Origin: Marsupella aquatica
Lineage: Eukaryota; Plantae; Marchantiophyta
Direction: 5' to 3'
DNA length: 64,000 nucleotides
NCBI GenBank assembly: GCA_973895155.1
Contig: OZ316892.1
Location: forward strand, 10,458,283 to 10,522,282
The translations under genes and the position numbers were made by a program. Below are positions 30,575-64,000 of the stretch, piece after piece. The notes under the pieces are model-generated. The model was not told the DNA's origin. It ran no database searches and saw only the letters and a list, made by a program, of their open reading frames with translations. How positions within the stretch are numbered: position 1 is the first letter of the stretch; every line of letters begins with the position of its first letter.

Positions 30575-31486
30575 CGGTGCAAGGGCGCCGTTCCTTTCAG
30601 GAAGGGCGGACGTGGAGGGAGGAGGCGTGAGTGGGCAGGGCGGGCGCTGATCTCCAAGTTTAGGATCAGGACTAGGAGCGGCCCTGACACTTAGCTTAGT
30701 GGGATTGCGGTTCCACTGGTAGGAGCAACATTTGTGCTCCTGCCTTGCTGTACAGGTAGATCCAGGCAAGTAGATTACTGTTAGGTAGATTAGGCTTACG
30801 CTGCAAAGACTTAGGCGGATCCACTACCAGGATAAGTACCTGGGCAGCGGGGAGCTCAGGGCCTCTTCTTTAGCAAGTTTTTAGTTTGCACCAGCCGGGC
30901 TGGGATCAAGTAGTAAGAGAAGCTCTCGGTTAGTCATACAGTGACCCTTGTGTATATTCATGTTTCCTCATGCCTAAGAGCTGAATAGAGTTGGCCTCAC
31001 GGCTTAGTTCGCAGAGCTTGTGTATGAGATGTACTGTTTGTATGGCAAGTGCATGGTATGACTCAGTCAGAATGAGTCATTTTGCTATTTGTGTGTCGCA
31101 TTAACTTGTGTGAAGAGTGCCCACATCAACTAATAGGTGAAGGAAAGTAAGCAGGGGAGTGAGAGTTGGATGTGTCGAGCTGAGAGAGGTCTTAGCGGCT
31201 TAACCAAGCCTATTGGGGATCATTCCGGCGGAGGAATCCAAACATACCTAACAAGACGGAGGGGAAGACGAGGGAAGGCCTAGATTAGGCCGGCTATGTA
31301 TCTCATGACCCGATGAAGGATCTGTCCAGTATATGTGTGTAAAATGTTAATAGTAGTAGTAGAAGGTTAGCAGCGTCCCATGCCGCTAAGCCGCGGAAAC
31401 GGCCTCGCCAAGCGCGAAACCTGTGGGAATCGGCTTGAGCTGGGGGGTTTCTTGGGTTTAGGGAGCCATGGGACGCACCACATTTT

Positions 31487-31505
31487 TGGCGCTAGATGGA
31501 GGGGG
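31487..31505 (+). other. Primer-binding site of the Tat-like gypsy element
   Basis: TGGCGCTAGATGGAGGGGG after a CA end; resembles the TGGCGCTAGAAGGAGGG PBS I recall from plant Tat-lineage elements. Confidence 0.7.
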
Positions 31506-31551
31506 CATTTCTTAAGCCGTGAGATATGAAGTTAGAAAGGAAGCATAGGTA

Positions 31552-33125: not shown

Positions 33126-34494
33126 GATGGCAAGAGGATCCCGAGGCAGAGTTCGTACCATCTAATGATGAAGCCGAAGCCCTATCAACCTTCTCAGAAG
33201 AGGATTTAGATCTTGATTGCTACCGGGTCTCTACTCGATCTACCAGAAGGAAGGAAAGGTGGGATGGGCTGGCCAAAAATAAAGGGAAGGTTATGGAGGA
33301 AAAGATCGACTCTTTGTCAACGGAAGGAGAAGGGAGGGCTCCGGCAATACAGGTAAGCCATGAGCCCACCAGTGAACCCAATCCTTCACAAGATAGCGAC
33401 TTCAATCGAGATCATCCTAAGTTGTTCTACCCCTCTGTTACGGCTAGTGTTAAGGAACAACTGAGAGAATTAGAAACGTTGGAGGCAATAATAATAATAC
33501 TTCATATATTACAATTTGTATTGAGTGATAATGCTTAATGCTGCCGGGAATGCTGCAATCTTTATATATGTAATCAAGTATGTAACTGGAGAGTTTTTTT
33601 GAAGACCAAGTTACCACTGGTCATGTATGTATATAACCGCTCTATAAAGGAGATGAAAATGGTAAGTCTTTATACATCTAAAGACTGATATTGAATCAGC
33701 TAACCCTGCAGCTAACCTAAGACAATACAAACCTAAGACTCCTGCCCACTGTCATGCCTTCCAATGCTGGTCTGCTTCATAAGTGAATAGTCACTTATGT
33801 GTACAGGCCATTCTGCTTGCCAAAAAATATGATTGTAAAAATGGGAAGGGACAATTGCAGGCAAATCATATGATTTTCAAATAGAGATCACACTCCATAG
33901 CCCCTCCACACCTGCCTCTACTTCAGGAATCACAACATCTATGATTCCTAAAGTAACCACAACCTCCAGATCTCTCTTTAGCTATCTCCTTGTTGCTCCA
34001 CTCTTCTTTGCTGTAATCAGGGCTGCCTTTCCCCTGTGCCTTCCTTGACTTTGGAACTCTGGAATAAACCACAACAGCTGCTGCAGTTGTCAGACCTCCA
34101 GTACTAGGTCTGCTTCTCCTCCTGCTCAGTCTAGAGCATTTCTTCATCACTGTTGTCCCCACCTTAGTCATCTCGAAGTCTCCAATACACCTGATCCACA
34201 AATGGACCAACACCATGAATGAGTATTATATTGAATACAACCAGATCTACAAGGTTTACAGATTACATAACATCAGAATACGCTTAGGATGTTTTCAAAT
34301 CTTGCTACCTTCACTCCTCTGGAGAATGTGTAACCCCGGTGTGTAACTGATGAATGATAAACATCAGGCATGGAGTGTACCTGCCCCAAATACAGGTCAT
34401 CAGTCTATGTTGTTCTTTACAAAATTGTCGAGGGCAGTCACATCATCTGGAGGCAACTTAAAAATAGTTGGATAGAGAGGATCCACTGTAAAAC

Positions 34495-37400: not shown

Positions 37401-39143
37401 CCTTAAGGATAGATTCCTTATTGGGGCCTTGATAGTCAAGACAAACTTCCTTTATACTAGGGATCCGAGACTTCAGCATCAACAGTTTGTGACTTAGATA
37501 TTTCTGCAACTTCCTCTCTCTCAAAATTCGGTTTCTGTATACTTTAGCTTGGTTTTGGACCTCAGGAATTGTGAGGCAACCTAGCCGCCTGCCCTTGCCA
37601 GTCCCTCTCTCTCCTCTTTTCTCATAGGCCTTGACCTCTCTTGCTACCCGAAGTCTGAAGTCCTTCATGTTCTTAATGGAATAACACTTGAAACACGTCA
37701 AATCATCAAACCCACCCCCCCAACTGTGACATTCGACTACATTCTTTATGCCTGGAAAGGCCCTTGATCTCACAAGCTTCTTCACTATACATAGAGAACA
37801 CCTCTGCCATTACTAGGGGCGCTGCATACCACGCACCACCCACTTTCACCTAGTCATGTAGGTGACTTTTGATAGGCCTAAGTTCTGACCCTACTTCTAT
37901 CTCATCCCGCCACAGACCCCAACACAACAATGACAAATTATCAAAAGTACCTCTATCATCATCTCGTGCTGACATCCTTGACGAGCTACTTGATGCACCT
38001 GCAGTCGAGGTGCGAGTCAAGAACCCCTGAATTTTTCTTTGTTTCTTATCCCTCCCGTCCACAGTACGGGGTCTGCCAGGGTGCCCTGACAAAACTGGCT
38101 CGTTTCTTGTAGGCCTCTGACTTTTGGCCACATAATCAAGATGGATCAAGCCAGTACAATGGCTTGTCAGATTAGCCTCCAAGTTTTGTTGTTTGGGTAC
38201 CAAAGTCAAATGGTGAAGACAAAAATTGCAGAACAGTTTCAAAGTCTGGAACTCCACTGGTTCCTTATGGACATCCCCCTCGACTGTAAACGTCTCGCGA
38301 CCAACTGTCTGCAACTCGTTGATCTTTGCTACAATCTTCAAATGCTCTTCAAGTATGGCTCTATCAGTCAAAGTATTTGACTGCGCCCTCCTTGAAATCT
38401 CCACAGGCCCAACTTTCTCACCCCTGTTCCTAGCCACCCGAGCTGCATGCTTTGATGATCGCAAATGCGAATTTTTGAAGTTGGTAAATGCATTATTGAT
38501 GGATGATTTATCCATCAATGTACCTTTTGCTAGCCCTTCCACCCGCTTGTCACACTCACAACACTCGATATGCCCCCAGGGCATGTTGTCTTTGTCCCAA
38601 GTTCTCACTTTCCACTTGTGGTGAGCACATTTAATGGATTCCATGTGAGTCTTCAACTTATCCGCAGATGCTTTCCATACTGCCTTTAAAGTATTACTCA
38701 TAAGAGTGGACATGAACGTGACTTGTTGTTCAGGCTCTGGCAAGGGGCAACCAGAGTGTGGATCAGCTTCCACTGGAGGCTCCCATTCATGGGAACATCG
38801 ACATCATCACTCTCTGGCAATGAAAGGCCATTGGAAGCATTGCTACTCCCGAGGGCTTGCCCTGCGCCTCCAAGGCATTTTTGGGAATGATAACAATCTT
38901 TCCCCCACAATCCTCCAAAAGATTGCAGATCTCCCATTTCTCCGGCATCCGAGTGGCGAGATTGACATCAATAAAGTGGAAGTCAAAATCGAGTAGTGCC
39001 TCCAACTTCAGTCGGGCATCAGCATACGATTCCCCTGCTTTGTAACTATATGACGATATAGGTTTTCTTTCCCCACCTTCTTTGTCTACTTGAAACAAAG
39101 TCGCAGGCGACATTCTCTCACCCTTTACTGACAACCTATCCAC
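34495..39143 (-). pseudogene. P-element/THAP9-like DDE transposase with N-terminal C2H2-like zinc fingers, frameshifted; one clear intron at 36853-37012
   Basis: Ordered motifs GPSINTL, YLAEDETTV(R/W)LPKHDTMIG, HASDGD, QDYIHNGKNLVNPL, RQNWASAQRICS and SDACEQFFSKVG parallel the P-superfamily D, D, DxxH and E motifs. The GT-AG splice restores the frame. Confidence 0.7.
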
Positions 39144-44152: not shown

Positions 44153-45983
44153 CAGGGGATAACTCGCCATCTCACCATAGTTTATACTCCGCAGCAAAAT
44201 AGTGTCGCTGAGAGGCTCAATCAAATACTATTGGAGCGATCACGGAGTATGCTGAGCCAATCAGGTTTACCATAGGAATTTTGGGCAGAAGCTGTCAATA
44301 CTGCAGCTTATTTGGTAAATCTTTCTCCTTCTAGTGCCATCAATTTCAAAACGCCGTTTGAAATGCGTTATAAGTGGCAAGCAGACTATCATGGCTTGGT
44401 AGTTTTTGGAAGTGATGCATATGCTCTCACACCAAAGCAGAATAGGACCAAGTTGGATACTATGTCCAAGAAATGTATTTTTCTTGGGTATCAGAGTGGT
44501 GTGAAGGCCTATAGGCTATGAGATCCTATTGCGTGTAAGCTCGTTGTCAGTAGGGATGTTTCCTTCAATGAATCCAGATTATTGAAGGAGGAGGAGAATA
44601 CTCAAGTCTCCCGTACTCACAAAGGAAAATCTCCTATCCCGGATCTCGTTGAGGGGGAGATTGATCATGAAGTGCATGATCAAAGAGAAGGAGATGCTCC
44701 AAGCATGGAGCTAGTTCCTGTGCCAGAGGAACAAGAGGAATTTATTGATGCCGGTGAGCAGCAAGTGGATGCTGCTGAGCTTCAAATCGTACCAGTAGAT
44801 GCAATTCAACCAGAGTCATCGGCTAGAAGAATATCTGGTCGTATTGTACGTGCTCCACCTAGGTATGGACAATGGGTTGATTCATCTCAACTGCAAGAGG
44901 ACGATTTTACAACTGATGATGAGAGTGATACGTTAATTTTGGAAGAAGAGGAACCTTCTTCATTTCATGAGGCAAGTGCTTCAAAGGAGAAGCAGAAATG
45001 GACTGTAGCAATGCAAACGGAGATGCAATCGCTGAAGGACAACAAAACTTGGGAGCTTGTTAAGCTGCCTAAGGGTCAGCAAGTGGTGGGCAGTAAGTGG
45101 ATATACAAGCTAAAGGATCAGTCTACGAGAGGTGGATCAAAGGTCTACAAGGCTAGGTTGGTAGCCAAGGGATTCACACAGGAAAAAGGTGTGGATTACA
45201 AAGAGGTCTTCTCACCAGTTGCTAAGTACTCAACAATACGGCTATTGTGTGTGCTTGTTGTAATGTTTGGTCTGTTGCTAGATCAGATGGATGTTGTCAT
45301 AGCTTTCCTCTATGGCACCTTGGAAGAGGTGGTTTTCATGAGACAGCCGCTAGGTTTTGTGAAGAGAGGACAGGAGGAACTGGTTTACAGATTGCTAAAA
45401 TCCTTGTATGGGTTGAAGCAGTCACCAAGATAGTGGAACAAGCGGTTTGACGATTGGATTCGATCACAAGGTTTTCACAGGAGTGTGTTTGACCCTTGTG
45501 TATATTTGAAACCGGTGAAGAATGTTGTCTTTGGGTTCATTGTTTTAGTACTTTATGTGGATGACGTGCTTATTGCGGCCAAGGATAGGTCTGAAATTGT
45601 TAAGCTTAAGGCACTACTTAGTGCAAAGTTTCAGATGAAGGACCTAGGGCCAGATAAGAGGATTTTGGGTATGGAGATCACTAGGGACTTGGAGGCTGGT
45701 AAGCTATGGTTGACACAGAGCAGTTATGTGAGGAAGGTAATTGCTAGGTTCAACATGGAGAATAGTAAGCCAATAATACCCCTTTGGCTGCATACTTCAA
45801 ATTGTCATCAGATTTTTGTCCCACAGATGTGACAGAGAAGGGGCTGATGTCAAAAGTTCCTTATGATAAGGCAGTGGGAAGTCTCATGTATTTGATGACT
45901 TGCACTAGACCTGATCTTGTCATGGCTATGGGCAAGGTGAGCAGGTACATGTCAAATCCAGGGAAGGTACACTGGGAAGCAAT
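44153..45983 (+). pseudogene. Copia pol, part 1: integrase C-terminal half and RT
   Basis: TPQQNSVAER, KCIFLGY, AMQTEMQSL..NKTWELV, YKARLVAKGFTQ, QMDV..AFL, KSLYGLKQSPR, LYVDD. Several stops and frameshifts. Confidence 0.95.
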
Positions 45984-46313
45984 TGTCACACCATTCTAGG
46001 TAGTGTTAGAGTGTATCATACTATCTAGCTCCGTATGTTTGGTATGTGTGCTATATGAGCCGATAAGGTTCCGTCAGGTTTGTGTGAGAGGGTACTTCTC
46101 ACTTGTGAGGCATTGAAAGGTCATCTTTCAATGTTGAGTCTTGGAGAGAAAGGAGCTTGAGTGGCTATGGTGGCTGTGAGCTCCGCTTGTGTAACGTGGA
46201 TTCCTTGAGTAGTGCAAGGTGCGTTGGCTTGACATACGTGTGTGATCGGATCGGTGCGGGATCGATGGGGTATTATTGACCGGGATCGTTGTGCCGATTG
46301 TATTGAGATTACA
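45984..46313 (+). repeat. Repeat A1 (TGTCACACC..GAGATTACA)
   Basis: Matches 54759-55086 with about 7 substitutions in 328 bp. Confidence 0.95.
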
Positions 46314-47629
46314 TTGAAAGATCGCTCGAACTCTATTGCTGTACGGACAGAGCTTCGATTGGAGGTTGTGTATTGGCGACGGTTTGTGGTAGTTCAAATC
46401 GATCGTGTTGTGTTGATTCGGATCTTATTGTTGACATTGTGTTGGAAGATCTATTCTGCCAGGGGGCTATTGTTTAAGCTTTCGACAGTTCCCGAAGGGC
46501 TCTGAGATGTGTTGATCGAAGGGCTGATCACAGCAAGGTCGACTACACCGTCCGGACCCTATCCAACAGATCTACAAACACGGGCATAGATCCCTCTGCT
46601 GTCGATCTGTCCCGAGTTGCGATCTGTGACAGTAGCGATCGGATTTGATAAGGCCGGCTGTGGCGCTGCTGTTTTGATGAAGGAAACGGAGATCAAACTT
46701 TGAATGCTGCATTTTGCGTCACTACTGTTTCCATTCAATCATGTGTATGTTGCCGTCGCCAAGCTGCGATTTTGCGTGAAGGGAACCAGCAGCCACGAAG
46801 TCGATGTTTTGTGAGGGAAATTGAGTCTGGATGTTGTGAGATCGAACTGCTGTGTTTCCGTCGGACTGCTACTGCGATCTGTAATTCTGCGAAGGGAACC
46901 GAGGGCAGAACCTGAATGTTGCCGAATCCGAAACTCGATCCGACGTAGCGAAGCGTTGCGGGCGTGAAGGGCTCACCTCGGCGTTACTCGGGATGAGGGG
47001 CGTGAGGGCGGAGCAAGAGCGGGCCAGCAAGCCAGCTTGCTGGTACGTGAGGAGTAGTTGCAAGTGCTGCCATTTTGGAGTGGCAGATTTGGTGAATAAT
47101 GACAAGTGAGAGGTCACCCATCCCAAAGCTATTCCTCCTCTCATGAGCTTAACTAGCAAGTTTCTATGTGGCGCATTGTACATGCTTCCTTCCATATTTG
47201 ATGTCCAAGGAATGAGGCCCTAGGGGTTTTATGCACTTTTGAATTCATCTAGATACTCTGTTTTAGCTAGTTTGCGATGGATTCTTGAATATTTGACGCG
47301 GGATTCTAGAGGCCTATTATGAAGGCCCTACATTGAACTATATGCACATTATTTACATGTATTTTTGATTGATTGGTGTGGAGAGTTGTGGTAAATCCTC
47401 TTCTTGTTGTTGGATCCTCTCCACACATGCTTCCTGTTTATGCGCCATGTTAGTTTGGCGTGGGCGCTTGATTCTATAGGAGTGATCCGGGTTTGCAACC
47501 GGACATTCTAGTTGTGCTACGTATTTCTCTCCTGGTGATGTTGGAGTGATGCTCAACACACCATGGTGAGTGCTTGTGTTGTTGACAGGGACAGATTGCC
47601 CTTAGGGTTAGCCTATAGATTAGGTTAGG

Positions 47630-49269
47630 TTGGTCACCACGGATTCTTTTGGCGCTGCTGGGTTACCCGATGGACGACGGACCGGTTTCACTCGGAGTGG
47701 GGTGCAGTTTCGGCCAGCGACAGTGGTAGCAATCAACAGCACAGCTTCAGACAGTGATTCTGACGAGGACTCTGTGAGCAGTTCTCCTCGTCATCAGGTG
47801 ATTGCACCATTGTTGTGGGATATGGAAGAGATGTACGGGGCTACAAAGGGCCCACGACGATACTCTGGTGCAGTTGGCACGATTGATCTGGATGACTTCA
47901 TCCAGGAGTTTGATACATGGTGCGATATGCAGACATTGCGTAACGCCACGTTGTTTACCCCTTTCATGGCATGAAAGGGATTATTTCAGCATTTGGAGGG
48001 GCCACCCATGGATGACTACCATGAGTTTTGGAAGGCTCATTTGGTTGAGATTGAGGCATGGAGGCAGCATTGGTCGCCTAATTACGTGTCCATCACCTAT
48101 GGCACTAGTGCGGCTGCCCAACCCATTGCCACAACTGCTGCTGCTTCTTCTAGCAGCACTAGCTAGAGTGACACGCCATCCACCAGCAGCACTCTAGCAG
48201 CATCCACCGCTACTCCTGCCGGTGTGATTATGACAGGAACTGGAGTTGCGCCAGCATTTAACCCTGTGGTGGAATTCTTTGAGGTACTGAAGCAAAACTA
48301 TCAGGGTGTGAGAACTGATAAGTTGAAGGGTCTCCAGGAGTTCCAGCGCAAGACTGGAGAGAGTCTACGTGAGGCATACACTCGTATGCGCAGATTGATC
48401 ACTGTCACCAAGGGAGTGACAGAGGCTCAGGCAGTCCAGTTTTGGTATGCAATTTTGGATAGAGAATTGCGACGTAGAGTGAGAGATGTCACTCTGCTTA
48501 GGGATACAGATCCCATATTAGCAGTTGTTTTTACTCTTTCTGAGCGTATTGAGCTCAATATGGTGAATGAGAAGGTGGTGACTTCCGGATTTGCCAAGGA
48601 AGCACCAAAGGCTGCATCTACATCTACACCACAGCCTACTGCATGGAAGAGCCAGAGGGAGAAGCCTACTGCACGAGAGTCTACCAGCCAGAGACCTGTG
48701 CCCTCTTATGCTGGACAGCAGTCAGGATGTTGGACCTGTGGTGGGGATCATGCACAGAGATATTGCCCAGATCATAGAGGATCAGGAGGAGCAGCAACAC
48801 CTGATCAGCGACAGTGTGATCATTGTGGAGCTCCTGGACACACCAAGGATAGGTGTTTCTCACTCCATCCTGAGTTACGGAGAGGAGGATCCCGTACACA
48901 TGATCAGGGAAGAGGAGGAGGAGGTAGACATGGTGGATGTGGTCGTGGCATGCCACATGCAGGGATCAGGGAGGTGACGCTGCCCGTGCTGTAACCATAG
49001 ATCCAAAGGATGCTAAGATTGCTCAATTGGAGCAACAGCTAGCTGCCATGGCTAGTTCCCAGGTGAGACCTACTTCTGGTGATGGGGCATCTACATCCTA
49101 TGGACCTTCCACATCCCATGGTCCTTCCACATCTTATGGAGCTGATGGAGAACTTGCCACCATGGGATTCATGTGTGGCACTGCACATATTGATGCATCA
49201 GCAGCTTTGAGACGTGGGGCAGCCAAAGCTCTTAAGCCCCGAGGAGCAGTAGTGGAGCTAGATCCATAG
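47630..49269 (+). pseudogene. Gypsy gag with two zinc knuckles
   Basis: YSGAVGTIDLDDFIQEFDTW, QRKTGESLREAYTRM, CWTCGGDHAQRYC and CDHCGAPGHTKDRC. Stop at 47972 and a frameshift near 48970. Confidence 0.85.
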
Positions 49270-49314
49270 AGGGGGGATGCATGTCGGCAGACAAAGCTTC
49301 CTCAGTCTTTTACA

Positions 49315-50484
49315 TTGTCAGAGACAGTTCAAACTGCCTCTATGAACCCGGTTCGGACAAACCCTAGCATGGGTAAGTTGGTAGAATCAGGTAGTGATGC
49401 AGCAGGGATGACAGGTACCCTGCTGGGGGTGGCTACTACCATGGTACGCACCCCATTATTTTCAGCGACAGACATGCTAAACTTGGGAGTTGGTCCTGCA
49501 GAAGTGTTCAGATTGGCAGCTACACTCTGTAAGGACACTCCACTGGTTGCTTCCCATGCAGAAGCAGCTTGCAGTGTTGAAGCAGTGAAGACCATGCCAC
49601 CTACTACTACTAGTGAGACATGGCATGCAGTAACAGTGAGGTTGGTGCATTTACCAGCATGCCCTGCATTTGAGAGGACTAGGTTTAAACCTAGCGTTGT
49701 GTCATTGGATAATTGGAGTGGTATCTTCCGATTAGTTGGGCCTTCTGGAGCAGTATACCAGCCAGAGAGAGTGTTACTGGATACTGGTGCTCAGCCCTTG
49801 ATGTTGAGGAAGTCTGCCATACGTGGATTGGGATTGCGTCCAGAGGATTTGGAGGATTGTCCCTTTCCCATTCAGACTTCATTGGGGGGACCTACACCTA
49901 CACAGCATATCACCAGAAGACCACTTGATTTGAGAATTCAGGAAGGTCATACCACAGATAGCTCACAGATACAGGCGCGAGCTATTCTGACTAAGGCAGA
50001 TTCATATGATGTGTTGGTGGGATGTACAGTGCTCTACCCCATGGGATTTATTCTTGATTTTTGGGAGGAATCAGTGTCATATAGACCTGATTGGCAGTCA
50101 GGAGATGCTCGATTGAGAAAATTGCCAGTGAGATTTAGTGGACCTCTGGGAGGCCCTAAATCCACACCATTGTCTTTGGCAGTATTCAGTGGTGTAATTG
50201 CTGGACCCGATGATTTGATTGAGGGTAATGCGCATGCAGCCGATGTTCCACCATTGGAGGAGTCTCATGAGGAGCACATCATGCAAGGATTACCTGTTGG
50301 CAGTGTTGTGCCACCAGTGTGGGGCACTGCACAGGCCTTGCCACAGGTAGCAGCACGATTGGTACATGATGCATGGTGTCATGCTTTTACACCACAGTCA
50401 GGAGCAGAGCAGTCTCTTGCAGATGGACCTGTGACTCTTTCACCATTGGATACCACTCTTATTGCTTGGCAATATCCACCGTAG
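49315..50484 (+). pseudogene. Gypsy aspartic protease region
   Basis: VLLDTGAQ active-site motif (~49771) and a downstream YDVLVG motif. Confidence 0.85.
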
Positions 50485-51260
50485 GGTATCTGTTTGTTGG
50501 ATCTTTTTGGTGGGATTAGCACTGAATTGGCTGCTGTTCTTCAGGCAAGAATTCTTGTGCATCGTTATTTGTATGTGGAGACAGATGAGACAGCACGGAG
50601 GGTCTCATTGCGACATGTGGCTATGTTGGTGGATAGATATCCATAGTTGCTACCAGTGGATGTTGTTCGTGGTTATCAGCATGCACTACCTGCTGATATT
50701 TCATTGCTGGGGGCGGATCATCTGCATCGTGTTGGCCCCATTGATTTGGTGATTGCTGGTTGGCCATGTCAGGGCCAATCTAGAGCTGGCGTTGGGCATG
50801 GACTTCATGATCCACGCTCTGCATTGTTTTGGGAGATGTTACGGGTGCTACGTCATCTCCAGCTACATCAGACACAGTCTCCAGCATACATTTTGGAGAA
50901 TGTGCCATTGTTAGGTGATGATTGTAGTCGGATTGTTGCCAGTGTTCATCAGGTGAGGTCTTGGATTGGACCTGCTGTGTTATTGGATGCTGCACGTGTG
51001 GGTTCTCGTGCACATCGTCCACGCTTGTGGTGGACTAATTTGATCCCATGTGAGGTGTTGAAGCATGCATTTGACAGCATTCCACGCTCACCAGCCTTAG
51101 TGGTGGATGATATTTTGGATCCAGGGCGTCGTGCACAGGGTGTGACCCAACCTGATAGACCTCCATTGGCAATGGTCAATGTAGTTGGGTGCCCACGTTG
51201 TGCATTACCCACTCTTGTAAGCCACTCTACTTCATATGCATTCAGACCACAACTAGGGGC
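50485..51260 (+). pseudogene. C5 cytosine DNA methyltransferase domain (DNMT3/DRM-like) within gypsy pol
   Basis: In frame with the protease: LLDLFGGIST (motif I), YVETD (II), DLVIAGWPCQGQS (IV, catalytic PC at 50764-50769), ILENV (VI), RAHRPRLWWTN (VIII). TAG stops at 50482 and 50644. Confidence 0.9.
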
Positions 51261-51394
51261 GAGCAGACAGTCCATGGACCTATGGCAGGATTGGCCAGGC
51301 TGGACAGATTGTTGAGCAGGAAGGGACTGCTCAATCTACTGCTAAATAGCAATCATCGGCTATCTCTTCTACCCTACAAAGAGATATTAGGGAT

Positions 51395-54300
51395 TTGGTG
51401 GAGAGTTGGGAACCACAGCTTGGCTCTAAGTTAACAGGGGAGGAGAGACGTCGCATGCATCGATTCCTGAAGAGTTATTGGAATTGTTTTGCATTCAGCA
51501 TGAAGGATTTGGGGACATTGAAGGGCCCTGGTATTCAGATTGAATTGGCTAGTGATGCGCCAATCTTTCGTAGACCATACCGCTATAGTGACATGGAGAG
51601 AGCTCTGATTCAAAGTAGAACTCAAGATTTGTTGGAGGCTGGATTGGTGGAGATTTCATATGGGGAGTATGCATCTGCCACAGTGATGCCAGCCAAGAAG
51701 GATGTGCATGGCAATTACACAGATAGGCGCATGTGTGGTGATTACAGACCTATTAATCGCCAGACAAAATCTGATCGATATGCCATGCCCACACCTGAGG
51801 AGATCTTTGATGTTGTGGGGCATGCAAAGGTTTTCAGTTCATTGGATCTGAGGGCAGGATACCATCAGCTTCCAATTAGGCATGCTAACAGGTCCAAGAC
51901 AGCATTCTGGGGGATTGATTCTTATGGGAAAGATCGTTTGTATCAATGGTTATTCTTACCATCCAGAGAGTCATGGATCGAATCCTTGCAGGTTTGGATT
52001 TTGTCAGATGTTATATTGATGATATTTTTGTCTATTCTTCTACTGTGGAAGAACATCAGCAGCACTTGCAGATTGTGTTGGAGAGATTGAGAGCACATGG
52101 GTTGAAGCTCCATCCTGGCAAGTGTAAGTTCTTCCAAGACCAGATTGAGTATTTGGGCCACACTATATACCCAGGGGGATTGGGTGTACAGCAGACTAAA
52201 GTGGAGGCCATACACAGATTCCTCATCCTACTGATGTGAGCAGAGTTCGTGCATTCTTGGGATTGGCGAGCTACTATAGGAGGTATGTTAAAGGATTTAG
52301 CCAGCTTGCTAAACCTTTAACGATACTCACTAAGTTGGATCAGGAATGGACTTGGGGTGATGACCAAGAGCATGCCTTTCAGGAGTTGAAGCAAAGGTTG
52401 GCATCATCCCCTATTTTGAGAAGACCCATTTCAGGCAGACCATTTCAGCTACACACTGATTGGAGTGGAGTAGGATTTGGAGCAGTGCTAACTCAGAAGG
52501 ATGATGAGGGGAATGAGTTTGTTGTGGCTTATGCCAGTAGATCAAACAATGCAGCAGAGGCTAAGTATAGCTCTTATGAGGGAGAGTGTTTGGCAGCAGT
52601 GTGGGCTGTTGCACACTTTCGTTGCTACTTGTTTGGTAACCCCTTTACCTTGATCATTGATCATCAGCCTCTTAAGTGGTTAATGGAGTCTGACAAACTT
52701 ACAGGGAAGCTTGCACGATGGGCATTGTTGTTACAGGAGTATGATTTCCAGGTGGTGCATAGGCCTGGAAAAGTGAACTTGGATGCAGATGGATTAAGCC
52801 GCAATCCATGTACTAGTCAGCAAGATGAGACTAGAGCTAGATGGCATGATGAGTCAGATAAGGAGATGGTGCCAGGATGGCATGCATCTGCCTTTCTTTG
52901 TTGGGTGCCAGCATACAGTGGATCTGTGGACTCTACCTCATTGGATGGAGTGGATGATGAGTCTTCAGATGTGGATGTTGGTGAGGTAACTTCTGGACAA
53001 CAAGATATTCACAATGATGTGAGAGTGTTGGAATATTTGCGCAGTGGTTCTATTGTTGGCAGTGTTGATGCCAAGGAACGTGACAGGGTTCTACAGAGAG
53101 CCAAGAGATTTCGATGGGAGGGAAACCATCTTTTGAGAGTACTGCATGATGGTAGGATGTTGGTGGTACCAAAACCATCACAACGAGTACATTTGGTGCG
53201 ACATGCGCATGAGGAGTTGGGTCACTTTGGTGTGAAGTGCACTTACAGCTTGCTACAGACACAGTATTGGTGGCATGGTATGCACACTCATGTCCAGCAG
53301 TTGATAGCTAAGTGTGTGGTATGTGATAGAGTGAGAACATCATTTAATGCTCCCACTCCCTAGTTGCACCCGTTGCCGATCATGGGTTTGGGATATCGTT
53401 GGAGTTTGGATTTTGCTGGTCCATTACCTCTTACCCAATGTCATAATCGGTATGTTTTGGTCATGGTGGAGCACTTCTCCAAGTGGATTGAGCTAGTGGC
53501 GTTGCCAGATAAAGCCAGTGGAGGAGTTGCTGCTACATTTTTGGATCGTGTACTCAGTCATTTTGGAGCACCAGCTGAGGTGTTGACTGATCAGGGAACT
53601 GAGTTCCGTGGAGAGTTTGAGAGTTTGTGTGAACAAGCTCTGATTGATCATCGTACTACCTCTCGTGATCATCCTGAGGCAGATGGATTAGCTGAGAGAG
53701 TTGTGCAAACTGTGAAGAGAGGATTGCGTAAGTATGGCTTGCAGGTTGGTCATCTGGGAGATTGGGATCTCTAGCTACCTTGGTTAGCTATGGGCTACCG
53801 TTTCAGTCGGCAAGCATCACTTGCATCCTTCTCACCTTACTTTTTGCTCTATGGTAGAGAGCCAAATTTGCCAGCAGCTATTCGTCGTGATGCTACATCA
53901 GTTGTGAACTTAGATGATCCTGATGTTTGGGTCAAGGTGTGTTCAGAGAGAGCACAGGTATTTCAGCGAGTGATGCCCATGGCTTTTGACAACCTTGCCA
54001 TTACCCAACATCGTGATACTTTGAGGTATGCCACTATTCGTGGAGGAGGTTACCGTGCAAGCATTCGACGATTTCATCCTGGTGATTATGTTTATTTGCA
54101 GCAGACAGCACCCACCACACTTGATGTGACCGCAGGCCGGACAATCTTACGTGTGCGTGAAGTGTTGCCTTCTGGTGTCCTAATATTGGAGGGACGCGAT
54201 GGTATGGTTTGGAAGGATCATGTGCGCAACTGTGCACCATGTCACCTTTCCAACATTGATGGTACAGTAGATCCAAGCTTGGCACATGTTCGTGCTGGCT

Positions 54301-54446
54301 TGAAATGTATGTTGTGTGGATCTACTCAGGGAGCAGCTACTATGTTGATTTGTGATCAGTGTTCTAGAGGATGGCACATGTCATGTTTGACACCACCATT
54401 GCAGGTGATTACTAGTGGATCATGGTTGTGTCCTCAGTGTCGGTGA
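51395..54446 (+). pseudogene. Gypsy RT, RNase H, integrase and C-terminal PHD finger
   Basis: RMCGDYRPIN, LDLRAGYHQ, YIDD (52012), TDWS..YEGE..DHQPL..DADGLSR, HEELGH..CVVC, SLDF / TDQG / AERV, then a C4-H-C3 PHD at 54306-54440. Small deletion near 51960; stops at 53361 and 53772. Confidence 0.95.
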
Positions 54447-54610
54447 AGCCGACTAGTTATCATTTGTGTTCTGTTGGCAGATATAGATTGCAGGTAGGTG
54501 ATCGATGGGGCTCACTTGCACCCGACCTCTTGATCTTCACACCTAAAAAGGTGTATATCAACCTTGTAGAACTCATGGCTAGCTAGAGTTAGGGGACCTT
54601 ACTCCCAGCT

Positions 54611-54620
54611 AGGGGGGCGA
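54611..54620 (+). other. Polypurine tract of the gypsy element
   Basis: AGGGGGGCGA, one base before the TG that starts repeat B1. Confidence 0.75.
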
Positions 54621-54621
54621 T

Positions 54622-55223
54622 TGTGGGGTTGGACATGTGTGGACATGAGTTCCACTTGTATTCCATTCTCTTGTGTTTGTGATGTGGCAATGTGACTATG
54701 TCTGGATGTATGTGACAAGCGATGTATGTTGTGTAGTGATGTGTATGTGCACGACAGCTGTCACACCATTCTAGGTAGTGTTAGAGTGTATCGTACTATC
54801 TAGATCCGTATGTTTGGTATGTGTGTTATATGAGCCGATAAGGTTCCGTCAGGTTTGTGTGAGAGGGTACTTCTCACTTGTGAGGCATTGAAAGGTCATC
54901 TTTCAATGTTGAGCCTTGGAGAGAGAGGAGCTTGAGTGGCTATGGTGGCTGTGAGCTCCGCTTGTGTAACGTGGATTCCTTGAGTAGTGCAAGGTGCGTT
55001 GGCTTGACATACGTGTGTGATCGGATCGGTGCGGGATCGATGGGATATTGTTGACCGGGATCGTTGTGCCGATTGTATTGAGATTATTGTGGGTTTTGGA
55101 CATGTGTGGACATGAGTTCCACTTGTATTCCATTCTCTTGTGTTTGTGATGTGGCAGTGTGACTATGTTTGGATGTATGTGACAAGCGATGTATGTTGTG
55201 TAGCGATATGTATGCGCACGACA
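54622..55223 (+). repeat. Right-hand repeat block B1 (54622-54756), GC, A2 (54759-55086), B2 (55088-55223)
   Basis: B1 and B2 are ~135-bp near-identical copies ending GCACGACA; A2 matches A1. Confidence 0.95.
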
Positions 55224-55780
55224 CAATGAAGTGGATTATCAGGTATTTGAAGGGTACCATGGATCATGGTCTTTTATTTGATGCAAATGCAAAGAATGCG
55301 AGATCATTGATTGGCTATGTAGATTCTGACTATGGACAAGATCTAGACCGAAGGAGATCAACAACAGGGTACGTGTTCACACTTGGCGGTGGATGCATAA
55401 GTTGGAGGTCTACTTTGCAGAAGTGTATTGCTTAGTCTACTATAGAAGCGGAGTATGTTGCAGCAGCGGAAGCAGCGAAGGAAGCGATTTGGTTGGATAG
55501 ACTTATCATTGAAATGAGATTGCCACAAGGGAATGTGAAGCTCCATTGTGATAGTCAAAGTGCGCTCCACCTTGCTATGAACCAGGTGATGGACAGTAGA
55601 GTGAAGCACATAGATGTCAAGTACCATTTTATCAGGCAGACTGTGTCTGATAATTTGTTTGAGCTAGTCAAGATAGACGATAAACTCAACCCAGCTGACG
55701 CATTTACCAAAGTGATTCCTTCGGAAAGTTTCTCTAGACATCGTGATGTGCTACAGGTTTTGCAATTGCGTCACAAGTAA
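55224..55780 (+). pseudogene. Copia pol, part 2: RT end and RNase H
   Basis: MKWIIRYLKGT, YVDSDY, RRSTTGY, EAEYVA, CDSQSA, KHIDVKYHFIR, NPADAFTK. Confidence 0.95.
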
Positions 55781-55972
55781 GGGTTTTTCTTAACATTCGC
55801 TGTAATTATTGATATATGCTCTTCTTCACTCCTAGTAGTAGGCTACAGCTTAGTTTTGGTTTGCTCTAGTTAGAGAGGGGAAACCATGTTGGTTTTCGTC
55901 CAGAACTTCCCGCTGAGGAATCATATAGGTTAGCAGTATTACCCTCCCCTAGACCAGAGTCAAGGGGGAGAT

Positions 55973-56315
55973 TGTTAGGTATTTACTCAAGGTCTAGGGT
56001 TACGACATGTAACCGTAGTTAGGCTAACCATAGTCGGAGACGTGGTTAGGTTAACTAGGATGCACACTATATGCCAAGCGGTGTTTGCTTGGATAAGTGG
56101 AACTTAGGCTCATTGTTACGAAGCCACTTGAGAGATGAGGAGAGCTTACACTGTGGAGACTTGGTTTAGCCGACGGGCTTAGAGTTCAGTAAAGCTCTCT
56201 TGTGTGTTCCTGTGGACGTAGCCTGGAGGAGGTGAACCACGTATCTCTTGTGTCGACTACTTGCGCGTTGGATGTGTCATGTGCTTACCATTACGAGTGT
56301 CGTCTATGCTCAACA
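55973..56315 (+). repeat. Copia 3' LTR, preceded by PPT AAGGGGGAGA
   Basis: TGTTAGG..CTCAACA, matching the 5' LTR. Confidence 0.95.
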
Positions 56316-57837: not shown

Positions 57838-58758
57838 TATAAATATTTACATGCGGGGGAGGGGGGCTGTGAGAACTGGGAGAACTGACGGAGCTGTGAG
57901 AACTAGGGTTTGGGGTTTTTGGTGTTCCGGAGGGTGAGGCGTTCGATCTTTGTGTATTGTGTTATGTTTGTGATGATTATCGTGATAATGGCAAGGATTA
58001 CTTCGGATTAAGACGACTTTGAATGGATTTGACCATCAGGATGATGGTCCACGGACAAGCTATCTAAACTTCGCTTACTCTGACGCGCGACGGAAGCTGA
58101 CGCTGTAGATTCAAGCTTTTTCCCAAGGATTCTAACATCTGAATGACGGGAATGCATCTGGGAGCAGACAAGAAGTCCGACCGTGCTCGTGCTGTGGGCT
58201 GTTTCTCTGGGTAGGGTGAAATTGCGTCACAGTCGAAAGGAGCCGCGGGGCTAATCTCTTTGGCCTTTATGCTGAAAGCGCTTTCAACTTTACTGGCATT
58301 CAAACAACGTTACGACATCTTTGATTGGGTAGTGCGGACACTGCCACTGGTGTACTGCATTGCATGCGATCACTAGTACTGGTTTATGTTGCATATTCCC
58401 TGAGGTGCTGCTCTTGCGGCTTCTCACTTTCTGCCTCCAATTCCTGGGGTGACTCTACCATCCCTACGGCTCACTCGGTGATTCTGGCAAAATTGGCTTG
58501 CTGGTGACTCCCTAGACCTCCTTTGGGGATCTCGGTGCTGGTCTCGTGCTGGTGGACATTCTCCTTTCTGGTGACCAGGATTCCAGGTGAGATATTGTCA
58601 ACATCCTGCGCTATTAATTTAGGTCTCCCTTTCACAAAGTTCATGCATTGGTGACTGGGAATCGCCTGCTTCGTCTTTGAGGTGCGTGCTCACTGTATCC
58701 CGGGTGCTGGACTGGTGCCCCCTGCCATTTACCTTTCTTTGATTTTGTCTCGATCAAC

Positions 58759-60933
58759 TTGATATCTATGTCGATATATCGGAGGAACACTTTGGGACAC
58801 GGAGGACGCGGGGCTCTCATGGCGGGACCTGCCTTTCTACGCGACGGGGCTGCACAGAGGGATGCGGCACGGAGGGATGTGGAAGGAGGTGCTGGCCATT
58901 GGCATCATGTGGATTCTGGTGGCCCTCGCGAGCGCGAGTTTTCTGCTCCTAGCAGGGGTGGTTATGTCAGCAATTTTTCGGGACAGGATGCCCGATCCGA
59001 TTTGATAAGAAACCAATGTCCACTTGATAGGGAGGCAATCACTGCTCTTCCCACTGATCAACCATTGCAGAGTTGGTTCGGTTTGAAACCTTCTGGTGAT
59101 AATGTTGATGGATTCGCAAGATGGGAAGCTCATCGTGCCCTTGACACTGTTTCTATGGATGTTTTGGAAGGCCGTGAGCAGCCCTCCTACATTGAAACCT
59201 TTCAAGATGACATTGGTGAACGATCTGGTAGGGAAGACATGAATGTGGACGGAGTGTCTGAGCAGGATCGCAGTGATCGCAGCCATTTTCACTCAGCTGG
59301 GCCTGCTGGTCCTCCAACTTTGGGTGCAACGGGAGAGGGCGCGCAATCCTCAACTGAGGCAAGGGCGGAGGAAGCTGAGGCTTGCATTCCGCTTTTAAGA
59401 AGGATCTCAGATCTCACGATACAAAATTGGCCCTCCCAGCTTCACACTACAATTACTTGGTCCCTTGAAGAGGCGGCTGAGACTGTTCGGGGGCTATTCA
59501 ACTGCTCAATGATGTGTTATTTCACTGATCGTGCACCTATGCTTCCGACGTTTAAATTCTGGGTGGAGAAGACTTTTGTTAACGAAAGGAAGTGGCCAGT
59601 AACACAAGTGAAATTCGTGGGGAAGAGCTTCTACATGGTGGCCTTCAAAAATCCTGAGCACCGGGACCTGGCTTTGGCAGAGGCACCCTGGTTTCTGGAA
59701 CGGAAGTATGTTTTTACCTTCCCTTGGGACCCGTCCTTTGATATCATGAATGAGTCCTACACTCTCTTACCTGTTTGGATTGAAATCCCTTTTTGCGCAT
59801 TGCTATTGGAACCCTGTCGTCGGAAGCTGGCTGCTTCTCTGGGAGATATTTTGCATTATATTCAGGGCGATGATTTAAGCTCCTACCCCCATGATCGTGT
59901 TTGTATACTCTGGGACACTCAGCGGGAGGTCCCGCGCAGTGTTGAAGTCCAAATTCAGGCTGATCTCTCCATCTGGCAACCAGTCATTTTCAAAAATATA
60001 CCCTTCCACTATTTTATCTGTAATCGCAAAGGCCACTTGGCCAGGGATTGTCGATCACACGAGGAGCAGGCATAGGAGGCCCCCCTGGCCGCTCCTCCTC
60101 TTAATACTGATCAGGGTGAGGTTATCCCTGCGGAAATTGTTACTGCTGTTGACATACCTGCCCCTCTTGAGTCTGAAACCATGGCGGCTCCTTCTCCTCC
60201 CGAGGGCATCCTCGGAACTACGACTGCTGTTGAGCATGATCCTGGAGGGAGCTCTTTATTTGGCGCTGCACCGGTGCTGGCTATTGATTCCTGGCCAGTT
60301 GTGATTGCATCGGTAGTGGATGAATCTGCTGAATTGGGTCCCCAAAACCCTCTGGTTAACTCTGTTTCTATGGAGAACGAGGTTCCTAGGATTTTTCAAG
60401 ATCTACAAGCTATGAATGACGAGCCTAAGCTTCTGTTGGCAGCACCTGAGATTACTTTGATGCCGTCTAGGGAACTTGAACCCCCTTTGGCACCTTCACC
60501 TGCCGAAGGAACTCAACTGGTTGCTATTGGGGAGGGATCTGAGGAAATGGTGGACGACCCCTCTGGCTCTGAAATAAATTCTGATATGGAGCTATCCAAA
60601 TATGAGGGATTTATATCCCGCTCTGCTCAAAAGAAACACCGAGCTCGTAAACTGGCACGCAGATCCCCACCTGAAGAGAAAAGGAAGGATAAAGGCAAAA
60701 AGAAAGCCAAGAATCAACGATCCTTACTTTTCTCCCCTGATTCTACTGTGCAGGATGCTGAGGGCTGGGTGACTCCAGGACGGAAGCTGACTCGGGAGCA
60801 AAATCGCTCCAGCACTGCGCTCCCTGTCCCTGTGGTGGAGGTGCAGCCTATTGCTGAACGGGATCCCCCGCCTATCCTTATGGGTGGTGCGGTGGGGGTG
60901 GTTGGTGGGAATGCTGCCCCTCTGACCTGCTGA
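58759..60933 (+). pseudogene. L1-type LINE ORF1 (DUF4283-like plus degenerate zinc knuckle), stop at 60073
   Basis: PWFLERKYVFTFPWDPSF..LPVWIEIP and YFICNRKGHLARDC. Confidence 0.85.
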
Positions 60934-61009
60934 ATATTGAGGCATAATTTTGTCTATTTGTTGCTTCTCCTAAAGCTGCTTTGCTGGCCCCCTGGAGAAG
61001 TGGAGCGAT

Positions 61010-64000
61010 GTGACACTCCTCAATTTTGCATCATGGAATGTCTGCGGCTTATGTAATCCGGATAGAAAGCATGTGGTGTTGAAATGGGCTTCTTCAATCC
61101 GACCTCCGCTCGACGCCCTGGCTTTGCAGGAAGTAAAGGCTGATGAATTTCGATTGGATAATGCATTGAAGACCATCCTACCCGATTATCAGCATTTTTA
61201 CTCGGCCCCCGTTGACGGCAGGGGAGGCACAGCTATTTTACTGCACCCGTCACTTAAGGTACTGTCATCAGGTACGCTGGACCTGGGCAGAGCGGTTTGG
61301 GCCCAACTGGAACACGCCGAGGGAACCTTTGGGCTGATCAGTGTGTACACGCCCAACTCTCCAGGAGAACGAGCAATTCTCTGGAATGATTTGAAAAACG
61401 AATTACCTCAGGGTCGATGGGTGTTCACTGGAGATTTTAACATGACTGAGCTCCGATGTGATTCCACTGGCTTGACCCCGTTGATCCGCGGGAGGGAATT
61501 GGAATTCTGGAGGTTTTTGAAGGTTCGACTTGACTTGCAAGACGCACTCTCTATTCTTGGTCAGGTATCGGGATCCAGGTTTACCTGGCGCCGGATTCGT
61601 AACGGCATGTTGACTCAATCCCGCCTTGATAGGTTCTATTTCAGTGAGAAAGGCCAGTGGACGGAGGAACTGGTGGAACTCAAACATGATGGCACATCGG
61701 CACTATCGGACCATGACCCTGTGCTGATCTCTTTCCGCATTGCCCCCTTGCTCACGTCTGCTTCTGATCAATGACGCACTTCTTACTTCAAAGCTAACCC
61801 TGCTGTGGTGAGGAACTCTGCAAACTTGGGACTTCTGGAGGCTGCCTGGATTGGAGATGCCGCTCCCCTTGCTGAACCTCATCTGCGCTTTTCTTTGGCG
61901 TATCAGCGTCTCCGCCAATGCTACATGACGCTACAATCGTCACCACTGCCCAAGGCTGCAGAGGCTGCACTACTGCGTGACAAACTTCGACTTCTGAAGG
62001 TAACCATTATGGAGGACTACTCCACTGACAGTATCACAGAGTTTATGGATACTGAAGATAATGTACGTTCAATGGAACTTGAAGATGCTCACCACTATCG
62101 CCGGCTATCTAGGATTAAATGGTTGGGCCAAGGCGACGAACCCTCTAAGTTCTATTTCTCCACTATTAAGGCCAAACGGCTCAGAGAAAAGATGGAATAT
62201 CTTGTGGTTGATGATGGCACGGAATTAAGGGAGGAGCGACTCATTGTTGGAGAGGTACAACGTTTTTGTGCGGAGCTGTACTCACCGCCATTACTGGATG
62301 GAGAAGAATTGAGGAAGCAGAGAATAGCACGCAGGACTCTGAGTAGGAACACACATTTTGTCCCTACTGCGGCTGAGGTTAGAATGCTTGAAGAGCTGCC
62401 TTCTATACGTGAATTGCACGACACTTTGTTACTTCTTCCCAGTGACAAAGCTCCTGGTATTGATGGCATGACTGCGGAGACCTTCAGGGCTTGCTGGGAA
62501 TTCATGAAGACTGACTTTCATGACATGATCTGTGATTTCTGGAGGACAGGACATCTAGCTTTCAACATCAAAGATGGGGTTATTCGTTTTATTCCTAAGA
62601 AAACTGATAAGCGAAGACTGGGGGACTGGAGAGCATTAACCATGTTAACTATTGTGTACAAGCTCTTGGCTAAGCTGCTAGCCCTTCGTCTAAAAATGTT
62701 ACTACCTAAGCTGATCTGTCCACAACAGACAGGCTTTATCCCTGGGCGGCACATTCTGGAAAATATCTCTCTCACCTGGCTGGTTAAAGACTGGATTAAC
62801 TTCACTAGGACCCCGGCTCTTTTCTTGAAACTGGATTTTGAGAAGGCCTTTGACAGAGTGGATCACTCTTACATATGGGAAACTATGAACCTGTTAGGCC
62901 TCGGCTCACATTTAATTTTTCTAGTAAAGTCTCTGATCAGCAATGCCTACTCTAAGGCTCTCGTCAATGGCATCTGGACTGAGGATGTGAAGATGTCCAG
63001 GGGTGTGAGACAAGGCTGCCCTCTCTCACCTCTTCTCTTTGTCATATCTACACAGCCCTTGATGGATTTTCTTACAGCGGAGATTAATGCTGGTAGATTA
63101 CAGGGTTTGCAGATCTCCAGTTCTCTACACATATGTTTTAGACTTTTTGCGGATGACTTAGGGTTGTTCATCCCGGCCTCAACGGCCGCCTTTGAGCAAG
63201 CCAGGAGTGCTCTCACTTGCTACGAAGATGCCACAGGTGCTAAATTGAACTTAAACAAGTCAGTTGTTATTCCCCTTGTTGTGGAGGTGATCCCGAGCTG
63301 GCTTCTAGCTACTGGATGTCTGATTAGTGAAAGAGGAGTGGTACAGAAATATTTGGGTGCTCCCTTTGGCTTGGATCTTACTGAAGCACAGTTGCATGAC
63401 TTTTGCCTTGACCGGATTGGAGCCAGACTCTCATCTTGGTGTACCCGTTTTCTATCTTTCACTGGAAGGGTGCTGTTGATCAAACATGTTTTACTTGCCA
63501 TTCCTGTATATCACATGATGTTTCTGCGATCCTCTGCTTCTCTGGCAAAGAAGCTGATTGCACTCAGTCGTGTTTTTCTTTGGGGGATTAACAAACAGGG
63601 GGGGAAGCGAATTCCACTGGTGGCCTGGGCGAAGCTGGCACGACCTAAGGTGGATGGTGGCCTGGGATTGAAGGACTTTCGTAGTCATTCTGATGCTCTA
63701 CTAAGTAAATGGTTTACTGGGGCGCTTGATAGACCGGAATCGGAATGGGCCAGGATGTATGCGGAGAATCTAAAGCTAACTAAGTGGCGCAACTATAAGA
63801 CGGTACACAGGAACAACTACTCGATGAAGGATAAGGTCCTGCTTAGTACTCCTCGCTCATTTGGGAAGCTCTGTTATACTGGCCAACTTTGGTGTGCTTG
63901 GACCTTGGTTCGGGAGAACCTGGTCCTTTGTCCTGGCACTGCGACCATCCCCGGACACTGGGGGATTGAAGATGTTTTGCGCTGTCTATTGGATTTTTAC
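61010..64000 (+). pseudogene. L1-type LINE ORF2 (AP endonuclease plus RT), stop at 61772, runs off the window
   Basis: SWNVCGL, LQE, GDFN, SRLDRFY, SDHDP; then KAPGIDG, LDFEKAFD, GVRQGCPLSP, LFADD, KYLG. Confidence 0.93.

Follow-up and report, generated by a model that had tools for sequence, protein, structure and literature searches.

The role of DNA methyltransferases (DNMTs) borne by retrotransposons has been a standing question since 2018, and the published carriers, dinoflagellates and the alga Klebsormidium, are hard to work with. In Klebsormidium nitens the carrier is KnitGypsy-Dnmt3, an element with a Gypsy domain set, an unrearranged and intronless Dnmt3-type domain and DIRS-like repeats in the order A-coding-B-A-B; the available text of PMC5890265 assigns the DNMT to Pol, within the ORF that also encodes reverse transcriptase (RT) and RNase H, reports purifying selection on it (Ka/Ks about 0.2 or less) and regards the element as having been acquired in the K. 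nitens lineage. The same source describes SymbioDIRS-Dnmt3, which shares the Dnmt3-type domain and the A-coding-B-A-B repeats, uses a tyrosine recombinase, and has de novo CG methylation activity in yeast. EpiLTRs of Cymbomonas and Euglena (bioRxiv 10.64898/2026.05.21.726589) are LTR elements that combine a cytosine DNMT with a chromatin reader; their DNMT is sister to DNMT4 and is accompanied by DAM and a chromodomain, and the preprint sets apart from them "streptophytes (Gypsy-DNMT3)". There, as in PMC12344493, the carriers are given as "streptophytes", with no land plant named in the available text.

Other gypsy elements are relevant for single features. Self-priming from LTR sequence complementary to the primer-binding site (PBS) has been predicted for the Tcn1/Tf1-Sushi elements, a non-seed-plant lineage, according to the available parts of PMC6317226 and PMC4600332, and Tcn1 belongs to the chromovirus clade (PMC6317226). 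A PHD finger is carried by two green-lineage gypsy elements: Gypsy-7a_cRei of Chlamydomonas, with a near-ordinary LTR pair and no DNMT mentioned in the available text of PMC9940879, and, going by its title, REM1.

We analyzed a stretch of 64,000 nucleotides from the liverwort Marsupella aquatica (hereafter the window), in which a Ty3/gypsy element of 9.24 kb (45984-55223) carries a DNMT3-like domain within its polyprotein. By its domain order, its position in the DNMT tree and its A-coding-B-A-B repeats it belongs to the published KnitGypsy-Dnmt3 family, with which it also shares the intronless, unrearranged DNMT. In contrast to the K. nitens element it resides in a land plant and has relatives in liverworts, mosses, Closterium and Mesostigma. 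It differs from SymbioDIRS-Dnmt3 in having a DDE integrase, a protease and 4-bp target duplications, and an assignment to the DIRS/PAT tyrosine-recombinase class was rejected on its rve integrase and these duplications. Unlike Tcn1 it has a PHD finger, no chromodomain match and split repeats, a comparison made by features. It shares predicted self-priming with the Tcn1/Tf1-Sushi elements, the PHD finger with Gypsy-7a_cRei and REM1, and the pairing of a DNMT with a chromatin reader with the EpiLTRs.

No report of a land-plant Gypsy-DNMT3 was found in the full-text literature searched, a scope that left out most subscription journals and Repbase; the available text of PMC6338049, PMC6673714, PMC9940879 and PMC11982613 contains no land-plant case, and the three supplementary text files of PMC5890265 gave no match to Marchantia, Sphagnum or KnitGypsy. 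The first-pass annotation of this DNA had taken DNMT-bearing retrotransposons to be known from dinoflagellates and a charophyte alga and not to be a standard feature of LTR elements in land plants; the published family is that of Klebsormidium, and close relatives occur in mosses and liverworts. A leaky-stop-like frame end, a likely self-priming site, the PHD finger and 4-bp duplications with ends at an internal att joint appear to be new details, since they were not found in the accessible description of KnitGypsy-Dnmt3 (PMC5890265).

Domain layout and the methyltransferase

The element is inserted in the RT-coding region of a copia element, and CAAT stands on both flanks as a 4-bp target-site duplication (45980-45983 and 55224-55227), the copia RT frame restarting at the second; empty-site contigs join 45979/45981 to 55227 in 4/4 runs. 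The host copia pol is split by the insertion into 44276-45983 and 55224-55780 (RVT_2 E 1.9e-41) and is itself broken. All features of the gypsy element lie on the plus strand, and its domains follow in the order Gag, protease (PR), DNMT, stop, RT, RNase H, DDE integrase and PHD finger. Gag (47822-48889), which has zinc-knuckle-like Cys/His motifs, is 59% identical to residues 1-358 of the Marchantia protein P0125 and has a weak Retrotrans_gag match (E 0.022); the aspartic protease (49690-50130, DTG at 49780-49788) is 82% identical to P0122, with an Asp_protease_2 match of E 0.0025 that is below the curated cut-off. RT (51500-52200) matches RVT_1 on its first piece (E 0.0016) and Marchantia P0126 with 78-79% identity. 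RNase H (52200-52820; RT_RNaseH E 2.2e-36), an integrase composed of an H2C2 finger and a DDE core (53160-53900; Integrase_H2C2 E 2.5e-15, rve E 9.7e-15) and a C-terminal PHD finger (54306-54440; PF00628 E 5.8e-11) complete the polyprotein; Pfam gave no chromodomain match on the integrase, only the PHD finger.

The DNMT occupies 50485-51246. The first-pass annotation had recognized a C5 cytosine methyltransferase here by five motifs in the protease frame, and all five were located as claimed: I (LDLFGGIST, 50497-50523), II (YVETD, 50572-50586), IV (GWPCQG, 50758-50775), VI (ENV, 50896-50904) and VIII (RAHRPRLWWTN, 51007-51039). An HMM search with stops read as X bore out the identity, matching PF00145 with E 9.6e-11 and 42.1 bits, above the cut-off of 22. 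Of the proposed DNMT3/DRM class only the DNMT3 half stood. Among 50 PDB sequences matched, DNMT3A is the top one (E 2.7e-9), followed by DNMT3C and DNMT3B; M.HaeIII has E 3.5e-5. An intact relative, P0002 (71% identical), has a predicted fold with a pLDDT of 93.8 (58-row alignment), and Foldseek listed for this model nothing but DNMT3A/B/C structures, the best with E 3.4e-18 and a TM of 0.83 over the target; the class assignment is one by PDB ranks, in sequence and in fold. The human DNMT3A catalytic domain (PDB 6f57, 6brr) is the best match in both respects at about 22% identity; unlike human DNMT3A, the domain here has no PWWP or ADD match and lies inside a retroelement polyprotein. A DRM identity was rejected, because motifs VI-X do not precede I-V and DRM2 reaches E 0.87 with motif IV alone matched; the order in the window and its relatives is the unpermuted I-IV-VI-VIII-IX-X, this copy being without IX-X. 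Identity and membership taken jointly, 50485-51246 is almost certainly a C5 cytosine methyltransferase of the Gypsy-DNMT3 (KnitGypsy-Dnmt3) family.

This copy is decayed, as had been noted at first pass from two TAG stops and an apparent loss of motifs IX-X near 51250. The stops are at 50482-50484 and 50644-50646, and similarity to intact relatives does break at 51246: the alignment to P0122, the closest relative (86%), ends there at residue 601 and restarts near residue 697, the P0206 alignment stops at the same place, and the junction (51246-51247) lacks about 91 codons that include motifs IX and X, which P0122 and other intact relatives retain; the frame also changes there. Gag, RT and integrase are also broken: the Gag frame by stops and a frameshift near 48966, where sibling copies differ, RT by a small deletion near 51962 and a frameshift near 52210, at which sibling contigs show a loose end and insertion rows, and the integrase by two stops.

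Sibling copies were read from contigs of 4 of 20 listed runs (2 studies) aligned to 50440-51440, with 575-3087 variant contigs per run; depth was summed over contigs, and neither copy number nor a ranking of domains was drawn from it. The first base of the stops is another letter in 95-100% (50482) and 82-91% (50644) of summed depth in the four runs, and loose contig ends occur at 51245-51246 in 4/4 runs. Since most sibling depth differs at the stops and at the 51246 junction, these lesions are not common to most copies. A further change, at 50525 in the motif I loop, is private to this copy, at least 99% of summed depth having another letter. The copy at 45984-55223 is a dead member of an abundant family, and the DNMT domain is family-wide, not a private insertion.

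Relatives in streptophytes and selection on the domain

Searches with the DNMT returned 147 homologues of near length (120 listed) and 81 longer ones, many of them fused to gag, PR, RT or INT, and a profile search gave 521 clusters at E<=1e-30. Among the matches listed, Marchantia relatives reach 72% over 98% of the query, and the named homologues are from Marchantia, Calypogeia, Sphagnum, Riccia, Closterium and Mesostigma; vascular plants are not among the named matches listed, most matches carrying no name. Judged by sequence, close relatives are present in Marchantia, Calypogeia, Riccia and Sphagnum, and distant ones in Closterium, Klebsormidium and Mesostigma. Two architectures are found in the best 150 of the 521 clusters: 18 are of type A, with the DNMT after gag/PR or before RT, and 83 of type B, with the DNMT after RNase H or before integrase, the other 49 showing the DNMT only. 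A further homologue search with a wide alignment, covering only proteins of 3486-5000 residues, gave three matches.

When names were looked up for 30 proteins, one type-A row proved to be GAQ93235.1 (P0326) of K. nitens and seven to be Closterium. GAQ93235.1 shares the Gag-PR-DNMT order, can be aligned with the window over both PR and DNMT (E 1e-38) and ends, marked as partial, 12 residues past the DNMT; we infer that it is one of the KnitGypsy-Dnmt3 elements of PMC5890265, as far as the available text of that paper goes. The Gag-PR-DNMT order is common to Klebsormidium, Closterium, Mesostigma, Marchantia and Sphagnum, and its occurrence from Mesostigma to mosses speaks against an acquisition confined to Klebsormidium.

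Three trees were built, all quick, unrooted and with SH-aLRT support only. In a DNMT tree of 46 hand-picked rows (25 type A, 21 type B) a single branch (support 100) divides the two types, and the window is grouped with liverwort and moss rows, also with support 100; a 96-row DNMT tree agrees (supports 85 and 99). In the RT-RNase H tree 9/10 type-A rows stand together (support 99), and P0198, of the PR-DNMT type, falls instead with a DNMT-less long branch. The short branches between Marchantia and Sphagnum would be compatible with horizontal transfer between the two. A scan of viral contigs gave 31 pattern matches and 0 confirmed relatives, and the ESM Atlas returned generic C5-MTase clusters only, mostly viral, a result uninformative on gene transfer.

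The type-B proteins form a sister group with the order RT-RH-DNMT-INT-PHD (P0152-P0204 and the 83/150 representatives), mostly metagenome proteins, which is separated from type A in the DNMT tree as well as in the RT tree and was not found described in the literature searched. One protein labelled as coming from a bacterial MAG (Obscuribacterales), P0145, sits inside the element clade and is likely eukaryotic DNA in the bin.

The dN/dS ratios, computed pairwise by the Nei-Gojobori method on 13 chosen pairs without a family consensus, are well below 1 between families. DNMT values are 0.13-0.22 in the 8 pairs whose dS could be measured (1.5-2.3, close to saturation; one pair is fully saturated), similar to the value published for KnitGypsy-Dnmt3, and RT values are 0.05-0.08. 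One unsaturated pair (loci L024 and L026) gives 0.13 for DNMT, 0.19 for PR and 0.08 for RT; in three close, decayed pairs the DNMT has 0.36-0.60, like their RT and other domains. Moreover, over 96 family domains, gapped rows excluded, the catalytic Cys is kept in 89/90, Glu in 93/96, Asn in 95/96 and the motif VIII Arg in 88/94 and 89/93; the motif IV Pro is kept in 68/91 rows. The ratios indicate that the domain is under purifying selection, which contradicts neutral evolution across the family. Intact copies likely encode an active DNA methyltransferase.

These data bear on the simplest alternative, namely that a fragment of a host DNMT3 or DRM was captured recently or by chance, or that the assembly is chimeric, with no role for the element. 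This copy is broken, with two stops and a deletion, and DNMT-less copies exist: among 15 of 369 joints shown, one contig of run X1 leaves out 50263-51280. Against such a capture stand the many homologues fused to gag, PR, RT or INT, the 521 profile clusters, the shared order from Mesostigma to Sphagnum, the low dN/dS and the number of variant contigs on the region in each run, and the unpermuted motifs exclude a DRM source. Capture or chimerism is thus very improbable and is refuted by family-wide presence together with selection; the close relatives in mosses and liverworts indicate that the element is not a one-off.

Several Marchantia "hypothetical proteins" (P0124-P0139, for example Mp4g09160, Mp8g17980 and Mp2g26090) are Gag-PR-DNMT frames of the element, and six gene identifiers of this set had no match in the full-text literature searched. 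Such gene models can distort counts of host DNMTs. Marchantia polymorpha is a standard genetic model, and with open Gag-PR-DNMT frames among its annotated genes (Mp4g09160, Mp8g17980) the role of element-borne DNMTs becomes testable in a land plant.

The Gag-PR-DNMT frame and the proposed role of the enzyme

The first-pass annotation had described the DNMT as lying between protease and RT in one polyprotein. The order holds; the DNMT in fact closes a Gag-PR-DNMT frame whose terminating TAG (51347-51349) is conserved in the family, and RT follows in the same frame behind it. PMC5890265 gives the DNMT of KnitGypsy-Dnmt3 in one ORF with RT and RNase H; in intact loci here DNMT and RT lie in the same frame with the conserved TAG between them. 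Seven natural proteins (P0125, P0128, P0144, P0146, P0149, P0150, P0207) are likewise Gag-PR-DNMT and end before RT; in some relatives (P0198, P0252, P0347) DNMT and RT are in one frame.

The context of the stop, TAG CAA TCA (51347-51355), fits the CAA UYA consensus given in the available text of PMC2754532, where this is the type I leaky context and readthrough in TMV is 6-10% in stable plants, and no majority difference is listed for it in sibling contigs. We surveyed 24 metagenome loci with both DNMT and RT, plus the window (n=25, many loci being near-copies). Read in frame towards RT, the first stop encountered is TAG-CAR-YYN in 16/25; TAA occupies the site in 2, and a nearer stop is present in 7; TAG-CAR stands at the frame-end site in 22/25, across four distinct sequence groups. 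L024 and L026, whose DNMT is about 49% identical to P0002, have TAG CAG TTA. The commonest context is TAG CAA CCC, and strict CAR-YYA occurs in 6/25 only. In the element interior 2/76 TAGs have this context, that at 51347 among them. The position of the DNMT in the Gag frame before a likely leaky stop suggests that the enzyme is made with Gag and packaged in the particle, probably at high copy, with RT and integrase scarce. The first-pass annotation had suggested both packaging of the enzyme and a pre-methylation of cDNA or insertion site; the former gains indirect support from this position.

From these features we propose that the window holds a decayed Gypsy-DNMT3 copy whose intact relatives probably make the DNMT together with Gag and protease, package it and methylate their own new cDNA. 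Most ribosomes would halt at TAG-CAR and a minority would read on into RT-RH-INT-PHD, so that the DNMT would be about as abundant as Gag; the protease would then release it inside the particle. After reverse transcription the DNMT would methylate cytosines of the cDNA, and new copies would arrive pre-marked, the PHD finger helping to choose the target chromatin. Methylation of cDNA by the element's enzyme has been proposed in the discussion of PMC5890265, and we lean towards new cDNA as the main substrate.

The enzyme could instead be nuclear and target the insertion site or the family's genomic copies, as self-restraint or, together with the PHD finger, in a reshaping of local chromatin. Any active role would be compatible with purifying selection and with intact catalytic residues, the PHD finger on the integrase is in keeping with a nuclear one, and both insertion-site chromatin and a slowing of transposition are raised as options in the accessible discussion of PMC5890265. 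A place in the Gag frame before the stop, however, better suits an abundant particle component than a partner of integrase, and a nuclear role would better suit the type-B architecture, where the DNMT lies beside integrase in 83 of the best 150 representatives. We regard it as unlikely.

A role other than DNA methylation, such as binding or methylating RNA, or binding CG-containing att sites and thereby steering integrase, seems quite improbable. The Klebsormidium enzyme gave no methylation in one yeast assay, called inconclusive by its authors (PMC5890265); the motif IV Pro is replaced in 23/91 rows; and the B end of the element has a CG near the att site (CACGACA). Nor is there CpG loss specific to the element: its observed/expected ratio is 0.33, and other segments of the window range from 0.34 (the host copia) to 0.62, one of them having 0.37; CpG depletion was rejected as a footprint of self-methylation. 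What speaks against such a role is the conservation of the catalytic Cys, Glu, Asn and Arg at 94-99% across the family, and the methylation of CG in yeast by DIRS-borne Dnmt3 domains, reported in the same paper. Methylation of the element's own cDNA remains the function that we prefer.

Split repeats, priming and integration

There is no plain LTR pair. The element starts with repeat A1 (45984-46311, beginning TGTCAC) and, behind the coding region, ends with B1 (54621-54756, ending CACGACA), the dinucleotide GC, A2 (54759-55086) and B2 (55087-55223, ending GACA). A1 and A2 are 97.9% identical (7 differences in 328), and B1 and B2 about 95%. Such split repeats likely escape LTR finders that need paired TG...CA LTRs, judging from the LTR-FINDER settings in the available text of PMC6317226, and this failure may explain the absence of the family from plant LTR catalogues.

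Directly behind A1, the 12 bases at 46311-46322 are an exact reverse complement of 46123-46134, a length that 0/260 control 28-mers reach (maximum 10). Similar matches of 10-17 nt occur in 8/12 5' ends, none of the 260 controls equalling them in any case; in the other 4/12 the match is 6 nt only. The former segment is the likely PBS and the latter the likely self-primer, at the predicted 5' end of the RNA, and reverse transcription is likely to be self-primed in the manner of Tf1. The LTR also contains a short hairpin (46110-46134): the PBS sequence recurs in its left arm, and the likely primer is its right arm. In repeat A of locus L027 a TATAAA box precedes the right arm by about 30 nt; the window family is without this box.

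A polypurine-tract (PPT)-like site (54607-54620) lies directly before B1, and not before A2, with the core CAGCTAGGGGGGC common to L005, L012, L013, L024, L027 and L030. With this PPT-like site before B1 and the likely PBS behind A1, standard reverse transcription would place a B-NN-A LTR at each end of the cDNA. The internal B-A joint GACA-GC-TGTC (54753-54762) is a head-to-head copy of both element ends with a 2-nt spacer, and this GACA-NN-TGTC form has a 2-nt spacer in 5/5 joints (window, L005, L024, L027, L030) and matches the genomic ends of the elements. Target duplications are of 4 bp in 4/4 fully bounded insertions (window, L013, L021, L027). B-A-B 3' ends recur in L027, which is a whole A-coding-B-A-B element, and in L030 (3' end), and are rearranged in L021.

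The 4-bp duplications, together with ends at the internal CA-NN-TG joint, suggest integration from circle-joined cDNA. Self-primed and otherwise ordinary reverse transcription would produce a cDNA whose true LTR is B-NN-A, the cDNA ends would be joined, and integrase would cut the CA-NN-TG joint of the upstream LTR, leaving A-coding-B-A-B. We consider this route through end-joined cDNA evenly balanced between true and false. The A-coding-B-A-B form might also arise by extra strand transfers or by copying of the parent, with integrase using ordinary linear cDNA end to end and no circle, which is a real possibility, somewhat short of even. Cutting of a circle at either joint at random would give half of the insertions as the mirror form A-B-A-coding-B, and this form was seen in 0/10 distinct 5' ends; symmetric cutting of a two-LTR circle was rejected for this reason, and the circle route needs an asymmetry, the absence of the mirror form speaking for linear integration. 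L012 and L013, of the form A-coding-B, were not accepted as integrations of a one-LTR circle, because L013 and the B-A-B locus L030 have the same 3' flank; the L013 form is likely due to later recombination or assembly collapse. On the other hand, with the PPT-like site before B1 and the PBS-like site behind A1 standard reverse transcription cannot copy B2 from RNA, and the A2-B2 joints have a variable number of extra nucleotides, as end joining predicts: 0 in the window, 1 in L027, 1 in L030 and 16, with PBS-like letters, in L021 (n=4 joints).

If end-joined cDNA is the substrate, the needed asymmetry could come from the enzyme itself. In this tentative and rather unlikely picture, the element represents an old streptophyte gypsy lineage, abundant in bryophytes, that would combine Gag-level packaging of a DNMT3 through a leaky stop, self-priming, and a DDE integrase cutting inside its own LTR on end-joined cDNA resembling a two-LTR circle; the packaged enzyme may put its mark on the first-made LTR duplex and thereby choose which of two identical att joints is cut. 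Such marking would explain why only A-coding-B-A-B insertions are seen. Two-LTR circles are as a rule dead ends, and integration of end-joined cDNA, if true, would be an exception.

The remainder of the window contains other repeats. A pair of 300-nt repeats (19148-19447 and 55964-56263), 97% identical and 36.8 kb apart, likely represents the LTRs of the host copia, either as one element with nested inserts or with one of them as a solo LTR. An L1-type LINE on the plus strand (58681-64000) has a DUF4283 ORF1, an endonuclease and an RT, with few stops; this LINE and the named homologues nearest to the gypsy element would by themselves indicate a land-plant host, most simply a bryophyte. A second gypsy-like gag (31773-32954; Retrotrans_gag, zf-CCHC) lies within 27134-33538 on the plus strand; upstream of it is a long stop-broken frame with a coiled-coil-like stretch, whose first ORF has no Pfam match. 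On the minus strand, ORFs of 277-419 aa at 34495-38803 and 22835-25183 (five tested, no Pfam match) are possibly decayed DNA-transposon genes. Short tandem duplications of 68, 94 and 44 nt are present at 60-576 and 16509-16597.
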